In this document: in pieces, positions 4,708 to 24,293 of the stretch
Layout of the letters: each line of letters begins with the position of its first letter
Numbering within the stretch: position 1 is the stretch's first letter
Source of the DNA: a virus
Taxonomy: Duplodnaviria > Caudoviricetes
IMG/VR virus record: IMGVR_UViG_3300025838_000091
Span: 1-33,533 of that record
DNA: 33,533 bases
Direction: 5' to 3' (one strand)
The notes under the pieces: generated by a model
The model's input: the letters and a program-made list of their open reading frames with translations, nothing else
Told to the model about the DNA's origin: nothing
Database searches by the model: none
Program-made: the position numbers and the translations under genes

Positions 4708-5085
4708 ATGAAAAAGCTAATTTTATTGGCAGTTTTAACGCTGTCTGCGTGCACGACCGCACAACAACAAACCGCAACATCCAGCGCGGCTCAGGCTCAA
4801 AAACTGCTGGCTGCGGCCTGTCCACAAATCAATGCGGCGATTGCTCAATTGTCTGCGCTTCAATTGCCAGATCAAGTCCAGGCTGATCTTAATGCGGCCA
4901 ATCCTATTGTTCAGTCCGCATGCTCTGTGAGCGGTCAAGTGGATGCGACCAGCGTTAAAGCGCTTGGCATTACCGCGATCCCAGTCATCATTTCGGCAAT
5001 CCAAGCTTCAAGTATGAGCGACACGGCAAAACAAGACATTACGTTGGGTCTGGATGCTGTTTCAGTTGGGCTGGCTTTGCTATGA
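4708..5085 (+). CDS. Lipoprotein, Ala/Gln-rich helical, hydrophobic C-terminus
   Basis: True start is the ATG at 4708 (GAGGG RBS): MKKLILLAVLTLSA|C lipobox. Confidence 0.75.
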   Translation: MKKLILLAVLTLSACTTAQQQTATSSAAQAQKLLAAACPQINAAIAQLSALQLPDQVQADLNAANPIVQSACSVSGQVDATSVKALGITAIPVIISAIQASSMSDTAKQDITLGLDAVSVGLALL

Positions 5086-5870
5086 AACAGGTGCGCCTAG
5101 CCTTGTCGGGGTCGGGATTTCTCGCCCCAATTCATGCAGGCGCGGTCTGCTCTCTTATGGATAACGGCGTTGAGATTGTCGAGCTATCCGGATCGAGCGG
5201 CGGATCCATCATTGCCGCATTGGTTGCGATCGGCATGGATGCCAAAGCAATCAAAGACTTGGCTATGTCTGATATTCCTAAAGGGATTATCAGTTTTCAG
5301 CCGCTAGCATTGCTCAAGAAAGCGTACAACTCGGGCGAGATTTTGCATAAATGGCTTCAAGACGTAATCGGCGGTCATACGTTTGCCAGTGCAAAAGTGC
5401 CCGTTACGGTAATGGCGACCGACATCGAGGCCGGAAAGCCGTATGTCTTTAACCAAAGCCTGACCCCAGACGTGCAAATTGCTGACGCTTGCCGAGCCTC
5501 TGCGAGCGTGCCGTTTGTCTGGCAGCCAGCAATCGTGAATGGCCGCGCACTGATCGATGGCGGGACCTGCAATAACATCCCTGTCGATCAATTGATTGAC
5601 GACAGCACGCCTCGAGTCGGCATTCAAGTAAAAGATGGTTCCGGATCTGGCAAAATCGACACAGTATTTCAATTCGCTGGGCAGGTTTTAAGCACCATGC
5701 TCGATGCGAATGAGGGAAACATTGACGTCTGGGCTCAGCGCACTGGCGCAAAAATTGTCGAAGTCAGTGCGGATCCCTACGGTTTCTTAAATCCAAACCT
5801 GACCACGGATGAGAAAACCGATCTGTTTAGTCGCGGTTATTTTTCGGTGACGACGAAACTTTTAGCTTAA
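5082..5870 (+). CDS. Patatin-like phospholipase
   Basis: LALSGSG glycine-rich loop, GSSGG nucleophile elbow, ASASVP and DGG catalytic motif. Confidence 0.9.
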   Translation: MKQVRLALSGSGFLAPIHAGAVCSLMDNGVEIVELSGSSGGSIIAALVAIGMDAKAIKDLAMSDIPKGIISFQPLALLKKAYNSGEILHKWLQDVIGGHTFASAKVPVTVMATDIEAGKPYVFNQSLTPDVQIADACRASASVPFVWQPAIVNGRALIDGGTCNNIPVDQLIDDSTPRVGIQVKDGSGSGKIDTVFQFAGQVLSTMLDANEGNIDVWAQRTGAKIVEVSADPYGFLNPNLTTDEKTDLFSRGYFSVTTKLLA

Positions 5871-6060
5871 ACAGCTCCCACAATCCCGGGTGCATTCGAC
5901 GATCTCCGGCTTCCCATTGCTGCCACGCGCGACACGTCGAATAAACGACGTGCGCAGCGGACGTTTGAGTCAGCCCGACCTGCTCGCGTTTGGTGCGAAT
6001 CTCATCTGGTGTTGGATTTGAATGCGGCCCTTTCGAACCACGGTTAGGATGATTAGCCAT
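5827..6060 (-). CDS. aca10: XRE HTH regulator, Aca10-like anti-CRISPR-associated repressor
   Basis: GLTQTSAA...WQQWEAGDRRMHPGLWELF is nearly identical to the Aca10 C-terminal half as I recall it. Last gene of a small operon with a palindromic operator. Confidence 0.75.
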   Translation of the reverse strand: MANHPNRGSKGPHSNPTPDEIRTKREQVGLTQTSAAHVVYSTCRAWQQWEAGDRRMHPGLWELFKLKVSSSPKNNRD

Positions 6061-6526
6061 TTGTAAAGCAATCTCGCAAAATTTTCACTGACTCAGGTTT
6101 TTTGTCGATGGCTTCAATTGCTCGCACCTCAAAAACAATATCTTCGTTTGGGGCAGTGTTGTTTGCTGTTTGTTCAATCCGCTGAATCCAAATATCGTGA
6201 TTTTGATTTGCAAAGTCACGCACCACCGACTCTAGCCACTGCATCATTTGGTCTTTGCCGATTTCGGTAAGTGTTAGCCATTTTGAATCTGCACTTTCGT
6301 CTGTAATTTTGCACTCGCGTAACACAATCTGTGCAGTGAATTCGTTGTTGATCGGCGCGCCATCACAATCCACAACCGATTTTGTTGTGCCGTCATCGAC
6401 GATGCCAAACATTTCGTTATTAAAAGTTTTGTTTGAGCCGTAATCTGTGCCGCTGAGCGTGAACCAGTACGTTGTTGCTCCATCCATCGAATTGTGGTCT
6501 TTACTACTAAAATTTGCTGTAATCAT
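6053..6526 (-). CDS. Candidate anti-CRISPR: AcrIF18-like N-terminal domain plus unknown C-terminal domain
   Basis: SKDHN.DGATTYWF...EMFGIV...VVDCDGAP resembles AcrIF18 as recalled (SKDQN.DGTTTYWF..ETFGVV...VVDCDGAP). Acidic (26 D/E vs 14 K/R); directly upstream of the aca10-like gene. Confidence 0.65.
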   Translation of the reverse strand: MITANFSSKDHNSMDGATTYWFTLSGTDYGSNKTFNNEMFGIVDDGTTKSVVDCDGAPINNEFTAQIVLRECKITDESADSKWLTLTEIGKDQMMQWLESVVRDFANQNHDIWIQRIEQTANNTAPNEDIVFEVRAIEAIDKKPESVKILRDCFTNG

Positions 6527-6543
6527 TTTATTTTCCTATCCGT

Positions 6544-6563
6544 TGTTCTCGATGTGCGGTTGT
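6544..6563 (-). repeat. 20-bp leader motif, copy 2 (ACAACCGCACATCGAGAACA)
   Basis: 17/20 identical to 6880-6899; ends 17 nt before the ATG at 6526. Confidence 0.8.
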
Positions 6564-6564
6564 T

Positions 6565-6861
6565 TTAGATATTAGATAAAACAACATTGTTGATTTCTGC
6601 AATTTCATTTTTCATTAAATATAGCGGAGCACAAATATCTGATAATTCACAGCCCGCCATCAATGCGACCTCGTTTCGAATCGCGCGCTGCTCTCTGCTG
6701 CTCAATTCCGTATCAATCAGAGCGTCAGCGATCGCCTCGTATGCAACTGCGTTTACCATTGATTCTGGATTCTCGACTGCTGCCCATTTGAATCCGCCAG
6801 CACCGATTGATTTGCGAACGATTGCTACTGATTCGTTAAAAATTTTAGTTGCGTTTGTCAT
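6565..6861 (-). CDS. Small acidic hypothetical protein, candidate anti-defence/anti-CRISPR
   Basis: 98 aa, 13 D/E vs 8 K/R, AAGGA RBS; first gene of the aca operon. Confidence 0.55.
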   Translation of the reverse strand: MTNATKIFNESVAIVRKSIGAGGFKWAAVENPESMVNAVAYEAIADALIDTELSSREQRAIRNEVALMAGCELSDICAPLYLMKNEIAEINNVVLSNI

Positions 6862-6879
6862 TTTTCATTCCTTGGCCCC

Positions 6880-6899
6880 TGTTCCCGAGGCGCGGTTGT
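6880..6899 (-). repeat. 20-bp leader motif, copy 1 (ACAACCGCGCCTCGGGAACA)
   Basis: 17/20 identical to 6544-6563; ends 18 nt before the ATG at 6861. Confidence 0.8.
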
Positions 6900-6916
6900 C
6901 TGTGTTGACAATTTAA

Positions 6917-6944
6917 ATTATACGCTCATTGTTCGTATTTGCAA
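6917..6944 (-). promoter_or_regulatory. Sigma70 promoter of the acr-aca operon with an inverted-repeat operator in the spacer
   Basis: -35 TTGCAA (6944-6939), 16-bp spacer, perfect -10 TATAAT (6922-6917). Palindrome ATACGCTCA-T-TGTTCGTAT at 6920-6938 (7/9 arm match). Confidence 0.8.
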
Positions 6945-6977
6945 GTGCTTTTTGCAATTATTTTCTAGGTATTTTCT

Positions 6978-7958
6978 TTAATGTCTGATTCTGGCCGCAA
7001 TCTGAGAAGCGCTCGGGTTGTAATACGTCATCGCTTGGGCTGGATTGGACCAGCCGAACATTTTGCACATGTCTAGCACATCCATACGCGGCGCAAGCCA
7101 AGTCGCAGCCGTGTGTCGGCTATCGTGAAACGTAAAACCCTCTAGCCCGGCTCGCGCTCGAGCACGTCTAAAGAGTGCGTCCAGCGTTTCTTTTTTGAGC
7201 GCAAAAACGGATGTCGAATCAAACCCCCGCATTTTCGCAATGAGCCTTGCAGCCTTCTTGGTGATCGGCACGTCCCTTGGTTTTGTCTTGGTAATCGGCA
7301 AAATCACATAGTCTGGCCGGACGCAAGCCCAATTCAATCCTGTCAATTCCCCCGCCCGCATCCCCGTTCTAAGCGCCAGCAAAAAACATACAGCCACGCT
7401 CTGAGTAATAGAGCGAACCGGTCCACCGTACTGCAGAGCCCTAAGCATTTTTCGGATCTGGCTCGACGTGATAACCGTCGTTCGATGCTCTGGTGACTTC
7501 GGCTTGCGCACGTCGCGCATCGGGTTTTCTGCAATCCAGCGCCATTCTCGTCTGGCTACCTCAAAGACGCCACCTAATAATGAACACTCGCGAATCACGG
7601 TGCCTGGACTCGTGGCCGCCAGCCGAGCGTCACGCCACTTGCCCAGCTCGTCTGGTGTAAAGTTACCGAGCAATCGACTGGCACTTAGATTTTCGTCGCG
7701 GATAAACGCTTTGATCCTGACTTGTTCCCATTTGTTACCGCGCTTAGTCGGGGAAATTTCTAGGGCATAGCGTTCGAGCGCGGCCTTGAGCGTGTACTTG
7801 GTGCCAATCGGTTTCTTGTTCTCGGTGCGTAATTCTGTTTCTCGCGCAGCTCCCCACGATTCGGCCTCTCGTTTGGTGCGGAACACCTGAGAATCGCGCA
7901 CTCCTTTGACGTAGACCTGTGCTCGGTAGCCTGTCTTGGTCTTGGTAACGGATGACAT
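6978..7958 (-). CDS. int: Tyrosine recombinase/integrase
   Basis: TGMRAGEL (catalytic R), TKT (K), FHDSRH (HxxR), FGW and MTYY (Y); adjacent to attP. Confidence 0.92.
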   Translation of the reverse strand: MSSVTKTKTGYRAQVYVKGVRDSQVFRTKREAESWGAARETELRTENKKPIGTKYTLKAALERYALEISPTKRGNKWEQVRIKAFIRDENLSASRLLGNFTPDELGKWRDARLAATSPGTVIRECSLLGGVFEVARREWRWIAENPMRDVRKPKSPEHRTTVITSSQIRKMLRALQYGGPVRSITQSVAVCFLLALRTGMRAGELTGLNWACVRPDYVILPITKTKPRDVPITKKAARLIAKMRGFDSTSVFALKKETLDALFRRARARAGLEGFTFHDSRHTAATWLAPRMDVLDMCKMFGWSNPAQAMTYYNPSASQIAARIRH

Positions 7959-9341: not shown

Positions 9342-9706
9342 GCTGTCATCCCCTTACCAATCTCAGCGGCGCACCTAACGATTGCTCGGCGGGTTGCACT
9401 GTATGGGTCGTTACTTACACGTTCAACCTTATACTTTTGTCGGTAATTGTCTTTGACGTCAAAGTATCCGGCATATATGGCTACGCCGTCGTCCTCCCCC
9501 GTGTAAAAGTCAATACTTAACTTCACCGCCAGCCGCAACGCATCGCCGTCATCGGTTAGTGGATTCCATAATTCAGTCCAACAGTGGTCGTTTGGCGGTG
9601 AACCGACAGATTCATAATAAAACCAATTGCCGCTCTCAAAACGACCTTGATCGAACGGTTGCCCTGCCGCCTTAGCCGCATACTCTAATAGTTCTTGGTC
9701 AGTCAT
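9338..9706 (-). CDS. Conserved phage hypothetical protein
   Basis: MTDQELLEYAAKAAG...WNPLTDDGDALRLAVKL...ATRRAIVRCAAEIG is a widespread phage family; ATGA coupling. Confidence 0.7.
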   Translation of the reverse strand: MTDQELLEYAAKAAGQPFDQGRFESGNWFYYESVGSPPNDHCWTELWNPLTDDGDALRLAVKLSIDFYTGEDDGVAIYAGYFDVKDNYRQKYKVERVSNDPYSATRRAIVRCAAEIGKGMTA

Positions 9707-10332
9707 TTCGTTACCCCAAAATTAAAAGCAATTAGCTGACAAAACAGGCGATATTGTTCCAGATATTCTTGGTTGTTTTTATGGGCTTCCTCAATAGCGT
9801 CTGAAAATTCTTTGACTGTCCCTGAAAAACATCCACAATTAACCCTAACGCCGATTTTTTTATCAATATGTGCAGTTGTAAATCGGCCAGATGATTTAGA
9901 AGGTCCAATTTGTAATATATCTGCGGATTTCAACACCTGAGCATCACCGGACACCCACGCATCACCGGACACCCACGCATTGCCGGACACCCAAGCATTG
10001 CCGGACACCCGAGCATCACCGGACACCCGAGCATTGCCGGACACCCGAGCATTATCGAACACCCGAGCATCACCGGACACCCAAGCATCACCGGACACCC
10101 ACGCATTGCCGGACACCCAAGCATTGCCGGACACCCGAGCATTATCGAACACCCGAGCATTATCGAACACCCACGCATTGCCGGACGTTGACAGGTTTTT
10201 TTCTGTTTCAATATACCCGCCTAAATCACCAGCAGCCACCGAAGAAATTGCAACTAAAGCACGTATTCGATAAAGTGTTTTATCTCCCAATTGTTTTGCA
10301 TCGTTTGCAAGCAATTCATATTTTTCGTTCAT
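9703..10332 (-). CDS. Hexapeptide-repeat (left-handed beta-helix-like) phage protein
   Basis: LYRIRAL..GDLGGYIE N-terminus, 14 x [SF][GD][ND]A[WRQ]V repeats, CGCF C-terminus. Confidence 0.8.
   Translation of the reverse strand: MNEKYELLANDAKQLGDKTLYRIRALVAISSVAAGDLGGYIETEKNLSTSGNAWVFDNARVFDNARVSGNAWVSGNAWVSGDAWVSGDARVFDNARVSGNARVSGDARVSGNAWVSGNAWVSGDAWVSGDAQVLKSADILQIGPSKSSGRFTTAHIDKKIGVRVNCGCFSGTVKEFSDAIEEAHKNNQEYLEQYRLFCQLIAFNFGVTK
9934..10185 (-). repeat. 14 x 18-bp coding tandem repeat
   Basis: Units such as GCATCACCGGACACCCAC / GCATTGCCGGACACCCGA on the plus strand. Confidence 0.9.
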
Positions 10333-12406: not shown

Positions 12407-13018
12407 TTAAATTGATAATCTGCGGACCGCGCGAGCGCGCCACTCAGCGGACTTGATGTCGCTGCTCTGGTAGCCATCGCCGAAACCCTGATACCAAGCG
12501 TCGTAGGAGTTCGAAGCGTGCTGCGTAGACGACCAGTAGCACCCCTCTTCAAAAGCCTCGCTACCGCCCGTCTGAAAAACCTTGGCAGGCGTTTGAACTG
12601 GCAACTCAGGCGCGTAAGGTCGAGTTGGGTTGACGGCTGAAAGATTAATACCTGACCGAGCCCAGCAAGAATTTTTCCAAGTGCCGGGTTTCAAGTTCCG
12701 GTACAAGATTTCAAGTTCGTCTTGCGACGGCAAATACCAATCACTAGTCTCACCAATCGTTAAATCAAGCGCCCATTGAGCCAGCTTGCTACCAGCTTCT
12801 GCCATGGCTTGCGTATTTGCCACCCCGTCGAAGTAAGATTTTGCGCCAGTTACATCTTTGTTCCGACCGTTCCACTTCTTTCCTAAGCACTCGCCCAACG
12901 ACTTGGGAGCGACGATCAAAGCAAAAATTTGTTGATCAATCAAAATACGGCCGGCATAGAATCCGCCTCCCATCGAGGTGCCCAAAATGGGTGCGATTTC
13001 TGTTGTTGATGATTTCAT
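12407..13018 (-). CDS. DUF1566 (Lcl C-terminal / C-type-lectin-fold) protein with DGR-like variable C-terminus
   Basis: GGGFYAG, DWYLPSQDELE, YWSSTQ, AW.Q.F..G.Q and RARAVRR motifs; ATG at 13018 with AAGGA RBS. Confidence 0.8.
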   Translation of the reverse strand: MKSSTTEIAPILGTSMGGGFYAGRILIDQQIFALIVAPKSLGECLGKKWNGRNKDVTGAKSYFDGVANTQAMAEAGSKLAQWALDLTIGETSDWYLPSQDELEILYRNLKPGTWKNSCWARSGINLSAVNPTRPYAPELPVQTPAKVFQTGGSEAFEEGCYWSSTQHASNSYDAWYQGFGDGYQSSDIKSAEWRARAVRRLSI

Positions 13019-13040
13019 ATAAATTCCTTTTGTTACTTTG

Positions 13041-13793
13041 TTAAAAGTCAATGTCCGTTAAGACTGGTGCATGGCTAAACGTCATGCGTCGATAAACCTC
13101 TCGGCAGCGATCAACGTCACCGCCGCAATACGTGGCAACATCGGCAACTCGCCCGGCCAAAACAAAGTCGTAAACTTTGCTGCCATCAATCTCGTCGCCA
13201 ATCTCTGAACCCTTGGTGGCGATTCCAAGAATTCTGCAAAGTTTGTCCAGGCTGACCATCTTCCCGACACCCGCCCATTGAGTCATCGTGTCGTAAACGT
13301 CCTCCCCCCATGGCTTGGCGTTAAACGGAATAATTGCTGGCGGTTCGATGCCAAGCAAAATTGACCGATGAAAAATAAACCTAAGGTCAAAGCCAACAAT
13401 GTTGTGACCAACAAAGACGGGCGGCCTATTTGACGTTGTGTTGTATGAGTCTTTGATAATTGAAAACAAGTCAGTCAGAATTTTTGGTTCCGCGCTTTTC
13501 CAATCTTCGCTATATAGGTTGATCGGCGCATCGTCACCAATAGCGATCGATGCAGAAACAATCTGCCCATACGCACCGTCAAACGATGTTTTGCGGTGGC
13601 GCTCGTCGATTGCGGCATCTATTTCTGCCATTTTTTCTTCGACATACGAATTGATCTTTTCTTGATCTTTGTAATTGCCCGGTGCCTTGATTGCGGCCTT
13701 TTGAACTGCGGCATCCGCCTGCAGCGCACTCATTACACTTGGGTGCTGTCCGGGGATCGTTTCAATATCTAAAAAATATGGGATTCGTTTCAT
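13041..13793 (-). CDS. DEDD 3'-5' exonuclease (PolB-exo/DnaQ-like)
   Basis: LDIET, GHNIVGFD and YC..DV motifs; coupled to RecT. Confidence 0.85.
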   Translation of the reverse strand: MKRIPYFLDIETIPGQHPSVMSALQADAAVQKAAIKAPGNYKDQEKINSYVEEKMAEIDAAIDERHRKTSFDGAYGQIVSASIAIGDDAPINLYSEDWKSAEPKILTDLFSIIKDSYNTTSNRPPVFVGHNIVGFDLRFIFHRSILLGIEPPAIIPFNAKPWGEDVYDTMTQWAGVGKMVSLDKLCRILGIATKGSEIGDEIDGSKVYDFVLAGRVADVATYCGGDVDRCREVYRRMTFSHAPVLTDIDF

Positions 13794-18114: not shown

Positions 18115-18449
18115 TCGCAAAAGAAAACCCGTTGCGATCTGTGCGGCACCGGCGAGTAATTGCGTCGCTCGGATGCTCGATGTGTGGCATGGAAGGATTC
18201 ACACAAGCGGCGCATGTCAATTACGGCAAAAGCATTGGTCAGAAGGCGTGCGACTCGTTGACTTTTCCTATGTGCCAGTGGTGCCATCAGTTTTTAGACC
18301 AGAGCGGCAAGCTTTCAAAAGTAGCCCGCAGAAACTTAGAGGCTAGTTACGTCAACAGAACCAGATCCCTGCTGATTCGTCGCGGGATGTGGCCGGAGTT
18401 TGTTGAACAGGCATATCAAAGAGCAAAAAAATGGGAGATCACGGCGTGA
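18111..18449 (+). CDS. DUF968/DUF1364-like Zn-binding HNH-type nuclease
   Basis: CSMCG...QAAH....G.K.CD...P.C..CH; ATG at 18111. Confidence 0.7.
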   Translation: MIAKENPLRSVRHRRVIASLGCSMCGMEGFTQAAHVNYGKSIGQKACDSLTFPMCQWCHQFLDQSGKLSKVARRNLEASYVNRTRSLLIRRGMWPEFVEQAYQRAKKWEITA

Positions 18450-19195
18450 GGGTCGAAAAGATTGGAGACGCAACGCTTTACTTAGCCGATTGCAATGATG
18501 TTTTACCGCTGATCAAGGGGGGGGTGGATGCTGTGATTACTGACCCTCCTTACAGCGAAGTGACTCACAAAAATGCAAAAAGCAATCGGACTGTCGGTTA
18601 TGGAAATAAAGCGATTGATTTTTTACCAATAACTGCCGGTGAGCTTTCCAAAATCATTAGCGACTGTTCCTCAATATGCTCGGGCTGGTTTGTAGCAACG
18701 ATGGAATGGCGGCATATTGCAGAGTTCGAACAATCGCCTCCTTGCGGATGGGAATTTGTCCGGTTTGGAGTGTGGGTAAAGACCAATCCAATGCCGCAAA
18801 TTAGCGCAGACCGTCCGGCGCAAGGATGGGAAGGTATTGCTTATCTCTATTCCAAAAAAGGTGAAACCAAAAAGAGTTGGAATGGCGGCGGCTCTCATGG
18901 AAATTATGTAGGGGCTTTGGTTTCAGATGGCCTACACCCAACGGGCAAGCCTCTTGGATTGGTTCGCGGCTTTGTGGATAAATTTACAAACCCACTCGAA
19001 TTGATCCTGGATCCGTTTATGGGATCTGGTACCACAGGGGTTGCCGCGATTGAAATGGGCAGAAAGTTTATAGGCATCGAGCGGGAGGCCTCCTATTTTG
19101 AAATTGCGTGCGAACGAATAGAAAGGGCGACAAAGCAGATCGGCCTTTTCGACGAACCTAAACAAATCAAATTTGAGCAAGGGGCTTTGTTATGA
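18446..19195 (+). CDS. Orphan N6-adenine/N4-cytosine DNA methyltransferase (beta class)
   Basis: TDPPY, HPTGKP and LDPFMGSGTTG; GTG start at 18446. Confidence 0.9.
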   Translation: MRVEKIGDATLYLADCNDVLPLIKGGVDAVITDPPYSEVTHKNAKSNRTVGYGNKAIDFLPITAGELSKIISDCSSICSGWFVATMEWRHIAEFEQSPPCGWEFVRFGVWVKTNPMPQISADRPAQGWEGIAYLYSKKGETKKSWNGGGSHGNYVGALVSDGLHPTGKPLGLVRGFVDKFTNPLELILDPFMGSGTTGVAAIEMGRKFIGIEREASYFEIACERIERATKQIGLFDEPKQIKFEQGALL

Positions 19196-23444: not shown

Positions 23445-24293
23445 ATGCCAGCCAGACCTAAAAGCACTTGCCGAAAAGATGGTTGTGTTGTTCTGCTGGA
23501 TAGGCCGGGCTTCTGTTCCGATCACAAGCCTCAGGCATTCGCCAACAAGTCGGTGCGTGGCGCTTATGGCTACGATTGGTCCAAGCGGATCCGGCCAGCC
23601 GTGATGCGGCGAGATAATGGCCTGTGCCAAGTATGCAAGTCCAGGGGTATCTTGAGCCCAGCACAAGAGGTTGATCATATCGTCAATATTGCAGAGGGCG
23701 GCTCGGACAGCTTCGATAACCTGCAAGCCATCTGTATTGAATGCCATCGCGCCAAGACGAACAAAGAAAAGAAGGGCTCGCATAAAGGGCAGCCGTTGAC
23801 CGATGATCTGATACATCCCAACTGGATACGTCGGGCGGCTATGCCCGTCACGATAGTCTGCGGTGCCGCTGGCTCAGGTAAGTCGACCTACGTCGCTACG
23901 CACTTGAGCGATGGGGACATCGTCATTGACCTTGACGCCATTCGTCTATCTCTCGGCCTATCCCTAGATGACAAGTCGACCGATGCCATAGGGGAGTGCC
24001 TAGCAACTCGTAATCGAATGCTGGATGCCCTCCACACAAAAATCACAGACAAACAAGCGTGGTTCATCGTATCGGAGCCTGTCGGGTTATTTCGAGAGGA
24101 CTGGGCAAAGATGCTCGGTGCCGAGAAGGTGCTTGTAATGATGACACCGTTAAACGAATGCTTAAGCCGCATCAATGCGACTCGGTCAGGTTTTCATAAG
24201 GTCAAAAGCCTTCATGCAGCACAGGTCTGGTGGGATAAATATGAGCCATCCTCGATTGATACGGTCATATCGGTGGGCGCACGGGGTCTCTGA
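23445..24293 (+). CDS. Terminase-associated HNH endonuclease fused to a P-loop NTPase/kinase-like domain
   Basis: RD..LCQVC...EVDHI...GG....NLQAIC..CH..KT, then VCGAAGSGKSTY...VIDLD. Confidence 0.85.
   Translation: MPARPKSTCRKDGCVVLLDRPGFCSDHKPQAFANKSVRGAYGYDWSKRIRPAVMRRDNGLCQVCKSRGILSPAQEVDHIVNIAEGGSDSFDNLQAICIECHRAKTNKEKKGSHKGQPLTDDLIHPNWIRRAAMPVTIVCGAAGSGKSTYVATHLSDGDIVIDLDAIRLSLGLSLDDKSTDAIGECLATRNRMLDALHTKITDKQAWFIVSEPVGLFREDWAKMLGAEKVLVMMTPLNECLSRINATRSGFHKVKSLHAAQVWWDKYEPSSIDTVISVGARGL

Follow-up and report, generated by a model that had tools for sequence, protein, structure and literature searches.

Related operons and the present locus

Families of anti-CRISPR-associated (Aca) proteins repress their cognate promoters (PMC9410906), and the described operon closest to the one considered here is acrIC7-acrIC6-aca10 of Pseudomonas citronellolis, for which a minimal 19-bp operator, bound by an Aca10 dimer, was defined by electrophoretic mobility shift assay (EMSA), and whose Aca10 is Protein Data Bank (PDB) entry 7XI5 (PMC9410881). 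Aca1 and Aca2 also bind RNA in acr leaders, and a covarying RNA motif has been predicted in 139 aca10 leaders (PMC13551039, 2026; this paper, the two others and PMC7648647 below are drawn on for the portions covered). The subject here is an aca10-type operon on the minus strand of a 33,533-nucleotide stretch, IMG/VR record IMGVR_UViG_3300025838_000091, the whole of which is termed the window and is one contig of a temperate tailed phage. Two cargo genes, g1 and g2, precede the gene for an Aca10-family helix-turn-helix (HTH) protein, and between the promoter and g1 is a conserved leader element, absent from the initial annotation of this DNA, for which a pseudoknot is predicted and which a short N-terminal arm of the repressor may recognize (Table 1).

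Any RNA step left aside, the locus is likely to be an aca10-type operon in which an Aca10-like repressor acts on its own promoter and the cargo counters host defence, and it is a further example of the known acr-aca10 layout. It has in common with the P. citronellolis operon the HTH core (66% identity), the operator (17/19), a TTGCAA-N16 promoter whose -35 and spacing are identical, and the order acr first, aca last (PMC9410881), which bears out the canonical acr-aca arrangement proposed in the initial annotation. The cargo differs, the repressor has an N-terminus ten residues longer that includes NHPNR, and the leader here contains an invariant GCGCCUCG...CAGGGGC core that the P. citronellolis leader does not have.

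Repressor and operator

The repressor gene is the last of the operon, with an AcrIF18-like domain encoded upstream of it. The second-best PDB match of its product, after Aca10, reaches only E 0.042, and the matches to Aca2 and Aca3 are at E 0.17-0.32 as against 5.5e-22 for Aca10; the terminal XRE HTH was thus rightly called Aca10-like. Residues Q22, Q37 and R44, tied to DNA reading, and G49, E52 and K57, tied to the dimer (PMC9410881), are conserved, as are R34 and Q38, and a further dimer residue, H30, is replaced by Y.

The near-consensus leftward promoter that had been noted, TTGCAA-16-TATAAT, was found again as the top of five promoter-like sites in 5400-7600, with a score of 10/12, and the 19-bp palindrome reported in its spacer is present, its arms matching at 7/9. 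Comparable 9-1-9 repeats are common, there being 48 in the window, so that the significance of this one lies in its identity with the Aca10 operator. The match to the published minimal site, 17 of 19 positions, is placed identically within the promoter, and a search for that operator with up to three mismatches gave a single match in the window, with two mismatches, and none in any of 100 shuffles. Among related loci, 74 viral ones fetched with the 77-aa protein (near-duplicates and a copy of the window phage included), an operator with up to four mismatches is upstream of the HTH gene in 48 of the 73 that have upstream DNA and downstream in 0/74. Comparison at this level makes it very probable that the HTH protein represses its own promoter. 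One related locus, L040, has an HTH identical to the aligned stretch of 7XI5, and its leader is the P. citronellolis aca10 leader of a published RNA probe, PF9678; the second gene there gave, against the PDB, an N-terminal match to AcrIF25 only, from which no name can be taken.

The leader element

The element reads CC-GC-GCCTC-G-GG-AACA-GGGGC (6895-6875). In the predicted H-type pseudoknot stem S1 joins 6895-6894 with 6885-6884, and stem S2, GCCUC with GGGGC, joins 6891-6887 with 6879-6875. A simple hairpin model consisting of S2 alone gave no compensatory change, and a pseudoknot test was therefore made on 82 distinct copies anchored on an 8-nt core alone. The bases flanking that core pair with each other as S1, pair 1 in 80/82 copies, pair 2 in 82/82 and pair 3 in 55/82, and swap among CG, GC, AU and UG/UA, a level reached in 0 of 2000 shuffles; for pairs 4 and 5 the same copies do not exceed shuffles. 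In a 32-row alignment (A5) the S1 cells changed on both sides number 11, against 2.4 in shuffles, with lower values for slid controls, the shuffle statistics for S1 being ones that disregard the relatedness of the copies. Variant S2 sequences in three loci (L014, L020 and L048) still pair. The window copy scores 40.4 bits with a covariance model that includes it, and an Rfam scan of the window and 20 loci gave chance-level snoRNA matches only.

Just 5′ of the element a small hairpin is predicted at the transcript start, and GG...CC hairpins can be discerned by eye at the corresponding place in related leaders. A second, decayed copy of the leader ahead of g2 scores 10.4 bits (E 1.2) with the covariance model, which is not significant, and no pseudoknot was found in it. 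Elsewhere there are operons with two to three pseudoknot elements, each ahead of a cargo gene (L016, L026, L148 and L089). At many element loci (L077-L198) the palindrome in the promoter spacer is other than the Aca10 operator, which suggests that the element serves alongside repressors of several specificities.

The N-terminal arm and its association with the element

The arm, of the pattern MxNHPNR, precedes the start of the Aca10 alignment by ten residues. In 26 loci the NHPNR codons vary synonymously, and the constraint therefore acts on the peptide. Of the 74 HTH loci, 51 are left once duplicates are removed along with those that lack a usable operator or upstream DNA; 31 of these have both arm and element, 16 neither, three the arm only and one the element only. 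The three with the arm only are those with variant S2, the one with the element only (L049) has a degenerate extension, and the invariant core is missing in 16/17 arm-less loci.

Stronger evidence than this set comes from two scans that are independent of the HTH, one starting from the RNA pattern and the other from the arm pattern. The RNA pattern was present at not fewer than 122 loci, from which nine already met and three duplicates were removed, with 1200 nt of downstream sequence available for 64. Among the matches listed, a sense arm open reading frame (ORF) occurs within 1200 nt downstream in 35/64 new loci, compared with 1/64 for antisense, 1/66 for upstream sense and 0/66 for upstream antisense controls; 17 of the 35 encode an HTH and 18 do not, and 29 read NHPNR. 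Conversely, a back-translated arm was sought, giving 120 loci with 300 nt upstream of each, and in 50 of 107 non-redundant ones the element is upstream, 36 times within 25 nt, with three loci for the control strands and regions. Restricted to contigs not met before, the element lies within 300 nt upstream in 36/75, and it is found in 0/10 of a family where the arm motif is internal to the protein.

The 77 arm ORFs other than HTH fall into 42 clusters by our own count, 28 of them with the element, and Pfam named three DUF families among 30 of these ORFs. Two proteins picked by eye match known anti-CRISPR types and have an NHPNR arm added at the N-terminus, one an AcrIC8 homologue (L293:301-561, E 2e-11) and the other an AcrIE9 homologue (L262:301-585, E 3.8e-12), and in both the element is 11-12 nt before the start. 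All ten members of a DUF6948 family (L215, L216, L225, L226, L240, L268, L277, L281, L297 and L308) begin with the arm 12-17 nt behind the element, and the family is a good anti-defence candidate. In aca10 operons arm and element are separated by about 200-1000 nt that include unrelated cargo, and both are retained.

A possible feedback module and its relation to published work

When the phage enters a cell that lacks repressor, g1, g2 and Aca10 would be expressed in a burst from the strong promoter. Subsequent binding of Aca10 dimers to the operator in their own promoter would shut RNA polymerase out, and the NHPNR arm would bind the predicted pseudoknot beside the g1 ribosome-binding site and so silence translation of mRNA already made. 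That the arm binds the pseudoknot and represses translation has, on the comparative evidence, about an even chance. A wider proposal, put forward tentatively and at somewhat less than that, is that MxNHPNR is a portable RNA-binding tag with the GCGCCUCG/CAGGGGC pseudoknot as its operator, the pair being present on Aca10 and on dozens of unrelated anti-defence proteins, homologues of AcrIC8 and AcrIE9 included, each of which would shut off its own translation. Were this so, a tagged protein would limit its own translation with no need of a separate repressor, and RNA binding would not be expected of the arm-less P. citronellolis Aca10. Seven residues and 21 nt of RNA would make an unusually small feedback module, and the RNA pattern, with an estimated 370 or so exact matches in IMG/VR, would together with the tag mark anti-defence genes that have no adjoining aca.

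The likeness to the RNA control by Aca1 and Aca2 is that, in an operon repressed by Aca, a structured element of the 5′ untranslated region, with covariation in S1 and an invariant S2, adjoins the first ribosome-binding site. Aca2 binds RNA with its HTH, whereas the candidate binder here is a separable seven-residue arm, found on proteins without an HTH as well, and the element is a predicted pseudoknot. AcrIF24 and AcrIIA1 regulate their own synthesis by means of a DNA-binding domain; what they have in common with the tagged proteins is an Acr that bears a regulator module, theirs being one that acts on DNA. In phage lambda a short basic N-terminal peptide of N, with several arginines, reads boxB RNA and antiterminates transcription, and the resemblance of the arm to it, a comparison by description only, is that of a short N-terminal peptide reading an RNA element.

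The covarying motif already published for aca10 leaders probably overlaps the element described here, and figure S6 of that paper may show it. The word 'pseudoknot' is absent from its main text and 'NHPN' from the text of its supplement (PMC13551039), and no description of the arm, of a pseudoknot reading or of the spread to non-HTH proteins was found in the literature, the coverage of which largely excluded subscription journals. The only aca10 RNA probe named in the portions covered is the P. citronellolis leader, PF9678, and neither that leader nor its Aca10 has the counterpart considered here, the core being missing from the one and the arm from the other. Pairing of arm with pseudoknot makes testable a loose end in the published work, namely a covarying leader motif with no binder.

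Cargo genes

The 157-aa product of g2 (6053-6526) is a fusion. At E 0.001 it has 62 representatives, six of which, 78-105 aa long, cover only residues 74-156, and nearly all the others, mostly of 69-109 aa, match residues 1-82 only; one further full-length fusion of the same type was met (P0002, 67%). Fused Acrs are known, as in AcrIE4-F7, and g2 likewise joins two small domains in one cargo gene. No match to g2 was found among annotated phages and plasmids, and a search with P0050 gave one unnamed plasmid protein. In P0043, of 154 aa, the AcrIF18-like domain is at residues 76-151 and the extra N-terminal part may reflect a miscalled start, and P0012 is a spurious repeat-protein match.

The likeness of the N-half to AcrIF18* was checked against the supplement of PMC7648647. 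A hand count gives 27 identities in 46 aligned residues between g2 residues 2-58 and AcrIF18.1*, and both AcrIF18 motif blocks are retained. AcrIF18*, a 69-aa protein of a Serratia marcescens prophage, inhibits type I-F and type I-E systems before DNA binding, and DNA mimicry by it is a proposal, not a demonstrated property (PMC7648647). Acidity and aca linkage are also shared, but g2 has an 11-aa insert and a second, 79-aa domain fused to it, and it is Aca10-linked where AcrIF18* is Aca5-linked. Since g2 is a 157-aa fusion with an insert, and not a protein of about 69 aa, its N-half is classed as an AcrIF18-like domain and is not a member of AcrIF18*. A profile of the N-half (A1) matches L056:2000-2218 (E 8.5e-16 and 99.3%), a protein that by eye is close to a listed AcrIF18 homologue and that heads another aca10-type operon; the same profile matched neither an Acr structure among PDB entries nor any family of Pfam or NCBIfam. 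An AcrIE9-like identity for the third gene of the L056 operon was not supported. From the resemblance to AcrIF18* the N-half is predicted to block type I-F and I-E CRISPR-Cas in the same manner, and g2 probably has Acr activity.

For the C-half the AlphaFold 2 (AF2) model has a pLDDT (predicted local distance difference test) of 91.5 and a fold resembling unnamed viral proteins (TM 0.72-0.81), with weak links to cargo of other aca10-type operons (L027 at 73.6%; L122 and L217 at E 0.004-0.007). Foldseek against the PDB gave nothing, the best VIA Z was 4.6 and leads in the Atlas stayed below 0.8. The g1 protein has a single homologue, at 47%; sequence searches of Pfam, PHROGs, NCBIfam and the PDB retrieved nothing, the ESM Atlas gave no usable match, BFVD nothing at E 0.001 and VIA a best Z of 5.0. 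These negative results for g1 and the C-half do not establish a new fold. A search for the genomic context of g1 and g2 relatives returned near-identical copies of the window phage or nothing.

The initial annotation had both upstream genes as anti-defence cargo and described them as two small acidic ORFs. Acidic they are (isoelectric points of 4.6 for g1 and 4.4 for g2, against 10 for the repressor), with g2 turning out to be a two-domain protein, and homology backs the anti-defence assignment for its N-half; for g1 and the C-half the case consists of position, acidity and low GC. An anti-defence role for g1 has a somewhat better than even chance. What the operon adds is a pair of new candidate inhibitors, the g1 protein and the C-half of g2, together with the AcrIF18-like fusion, which is useful but routine. 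Known acr families do occur near relatives of the repressor: AcrIF11 is found in 3/49 non-redundant related loci (L043, L064 and L065), in addition to the AcrIF18-like gene of L056. One aca10-type operon has a RadC/JAB gene (L041:2420-2926) as its only cargo.

Alternative explanations

Several observations weigh against the reading favoured here. The two operator mismatches are both in one half-site. S1 is just 2 bp in the window, and S2 is invariant by construction of the pattern, so that its pairing is predicted and does not derive from covariation. Among the matches listed, an arm ORF is missing from the 1200 nt that follow the element in 29/64 loci, and only three independent pairs fall on supported branches of the HTH tree (sign test p 0.25-0.5), which, with 54 columns, is poorly resolved, so the 51-locus set alone proves little. 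No protein-RNA co-evolution was found for Aca10, and purified Aca10, the source of which is not stated in the sections covered, showed no RNA binding (PMC13551039). With regard to cargo, just three of 84 candidate ORFs in the 49 non-redundant related loci match an Acr model (AcrIF11), one is RadC, and the rest match no NCBIfam family, Pfam adding just a winged HTH; and the AcrIF18-like half of g2 is fused and has an insert, so its activity may differ.

The mismatches raise the question whether the operator has decayed and the copy here has lost its autorepression at the DNA level. This is improbable, since the same ACGAAC half-site variant also occurs in L002, L010 and L055, most relatives have two to four mismatches, and the DNA-reading residues of the HTH are intact. 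It is more improbable again that the HTH is a HigA- or MqsA-type antitoxin with a toxin encoded upstream: weak MqsA and HigA-2 matches would suggest this, but they are under the curated cut-offs (27.8 vs 61.8 bits) and some 20 orders weaker than the match to Aca10, g1 and g2 are both acidic with neither matching a toxin family, and the cargo slot is freely variable among relatives. A less remote alternative, still rather unlikely, accepts the Aca10-regulated operon and holds that its cargo is aimed at defences other than CRISPR-Cas, or that the fusion has lost Acr activity. There are many non-acr genes in Aca-regulated operons (PMC13551039), RadC in L041 being of this kind, g1 and the C-half have no sequence match to a known Acr, and an AcrIF17 homologue at 39% was inactive on one system (PMC7648647). 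Set against this are the acidity of the g2 N-half and its two intact motif blocks, and the AcrIF18-like family member that heads the L056 operon.

The main rival for the RNA step leaves the operon as described and has the pseudoknot act alone in cis, on mRNA stability or by strong initiation, with the arm linked to it by descent only, either because leader, Shine-Dalgarno (SD) sequence and MxNHPNR form a 5′ cassette transferred by recombination to many genes or because the tag has some other job such as packaging or turnover. We regard this as a real, if not the leading, possibility. It suits the contiguous cases, in that the 36 loci of 107 with the element within 25 nt of the arm start codon have the two in one block, and a single block swap explains how L020 and L035 come to have the same promoter with a different leader, cargo and arm. 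For eight of 16 leaders from arm-less loci a pseudoknot of different sequence is possible, shuffles often scoring equally high, and the published Aca10 RNA EMSA was negative (PMC13551039). It suits the cargo-separated operons less: arm and element are kept there despite the intervening unrelated cargo, the arm is conserved as protein, with synonymous codons varying and NHPNR retained in 29 of the 35 listed RNA-pattern arms, and the core is lost along with the arm.

Genomic setting

Table 1. Features of the aca10-type operon (window coordinates; SD, Shine-Dalgarno sequence; MFE, minimum free energy)
Feature	Position	Strand	Remarks
Sigma-70-type promoter TTGCAA-N16-TATAAT	6917..6944	-	-35 at 6944-6939, -10 at 6922-6917; 16-nt spacer
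Putative Aca10 operator	6920..6938	.	One perfect and one 7/9 half-site; fills promoter spacer
Predicted 5-bp hairpin, transcript start	6896..6911	-	MFE fold
Conserved leader element, predicted H-type pseudoknot	6875..6895	-	Directly before SD 6873-6869
g1, 98-aa acidic four-helix orphan, candidate anti-defence protein	6565..6861	-	AF2 pLDDT 87
Decayed second leader copy ahead of g2	6526..6563	-	38-nt direct repeat, 71%
g2 N-half (aa 1-77), AcrIF18*-like domain with 11-aa insert	6296..6526	-	Stand-alone relatives 69-109 aa
g2 C-half (aa 79-157), alpha/beta domain with no name	6053..6292	-	Stand-alone elsewhere, 78-105 aa
Repressor N-terminal arm, MANHPNR and linker, candidate RNA-binding tag	6019..6060	-	Absent from P. 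citronellolis Aca10
Aca10-family XRE HTH repressor, 77 aa	5827..6060	-	37/56 identical to 7XI5, E 5.5e-22

The plus strand of the window carries lysis genes up to 5870, the last of the cluster being a patatin-family gene (5082-5870) that is convergent with the aca10 gene and has a 44-nt overlap with it; downstream of the latter there is just a weak hairpin (-3 kcal/mol). Next comes an arm on the minus strand that encodes integrase, RecT, exonuclease and a CI-like repressor, and beyond are replication, terminase, portal and capsid genes. GC is 42% in both cargo genes, 53% in the HTH gene and about 48-53% in the surroundings. The unit had been taken to stand alone. It does have its own promoter, yet it is not isolated, because the integrase gene (6978-7958) is on the same strand and its 3′ end is 34 nt ahead of the -35 box; no terminator-like site was found between them.

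The closest integrases among species genomes are those of Zoogloeaceae / Nitrogeniibacter metagenome-assembled genomes, with 53-60% identity, which hints at a betaproteobacterial host. None of these nearest relatives has an aca10 operon downstream, and a fixed hotspot beside the window integrase is therefore not shown. IMG/VR holds a copy of the region that is 99.4% identical (L075). Elsewhere in the window, the early arm includes a gene with YdcK beta-solenoid hexapeptide repeats (9703-10332), a protein with an Lcl C-terminal domain is encoded at 12407-13051 and an N6/N4 DNA methylase at 18431-19195, and an HNH nuclease fused to an AAA/kinase-like domain (23445-24293) is directly ahead of the terminase genes.

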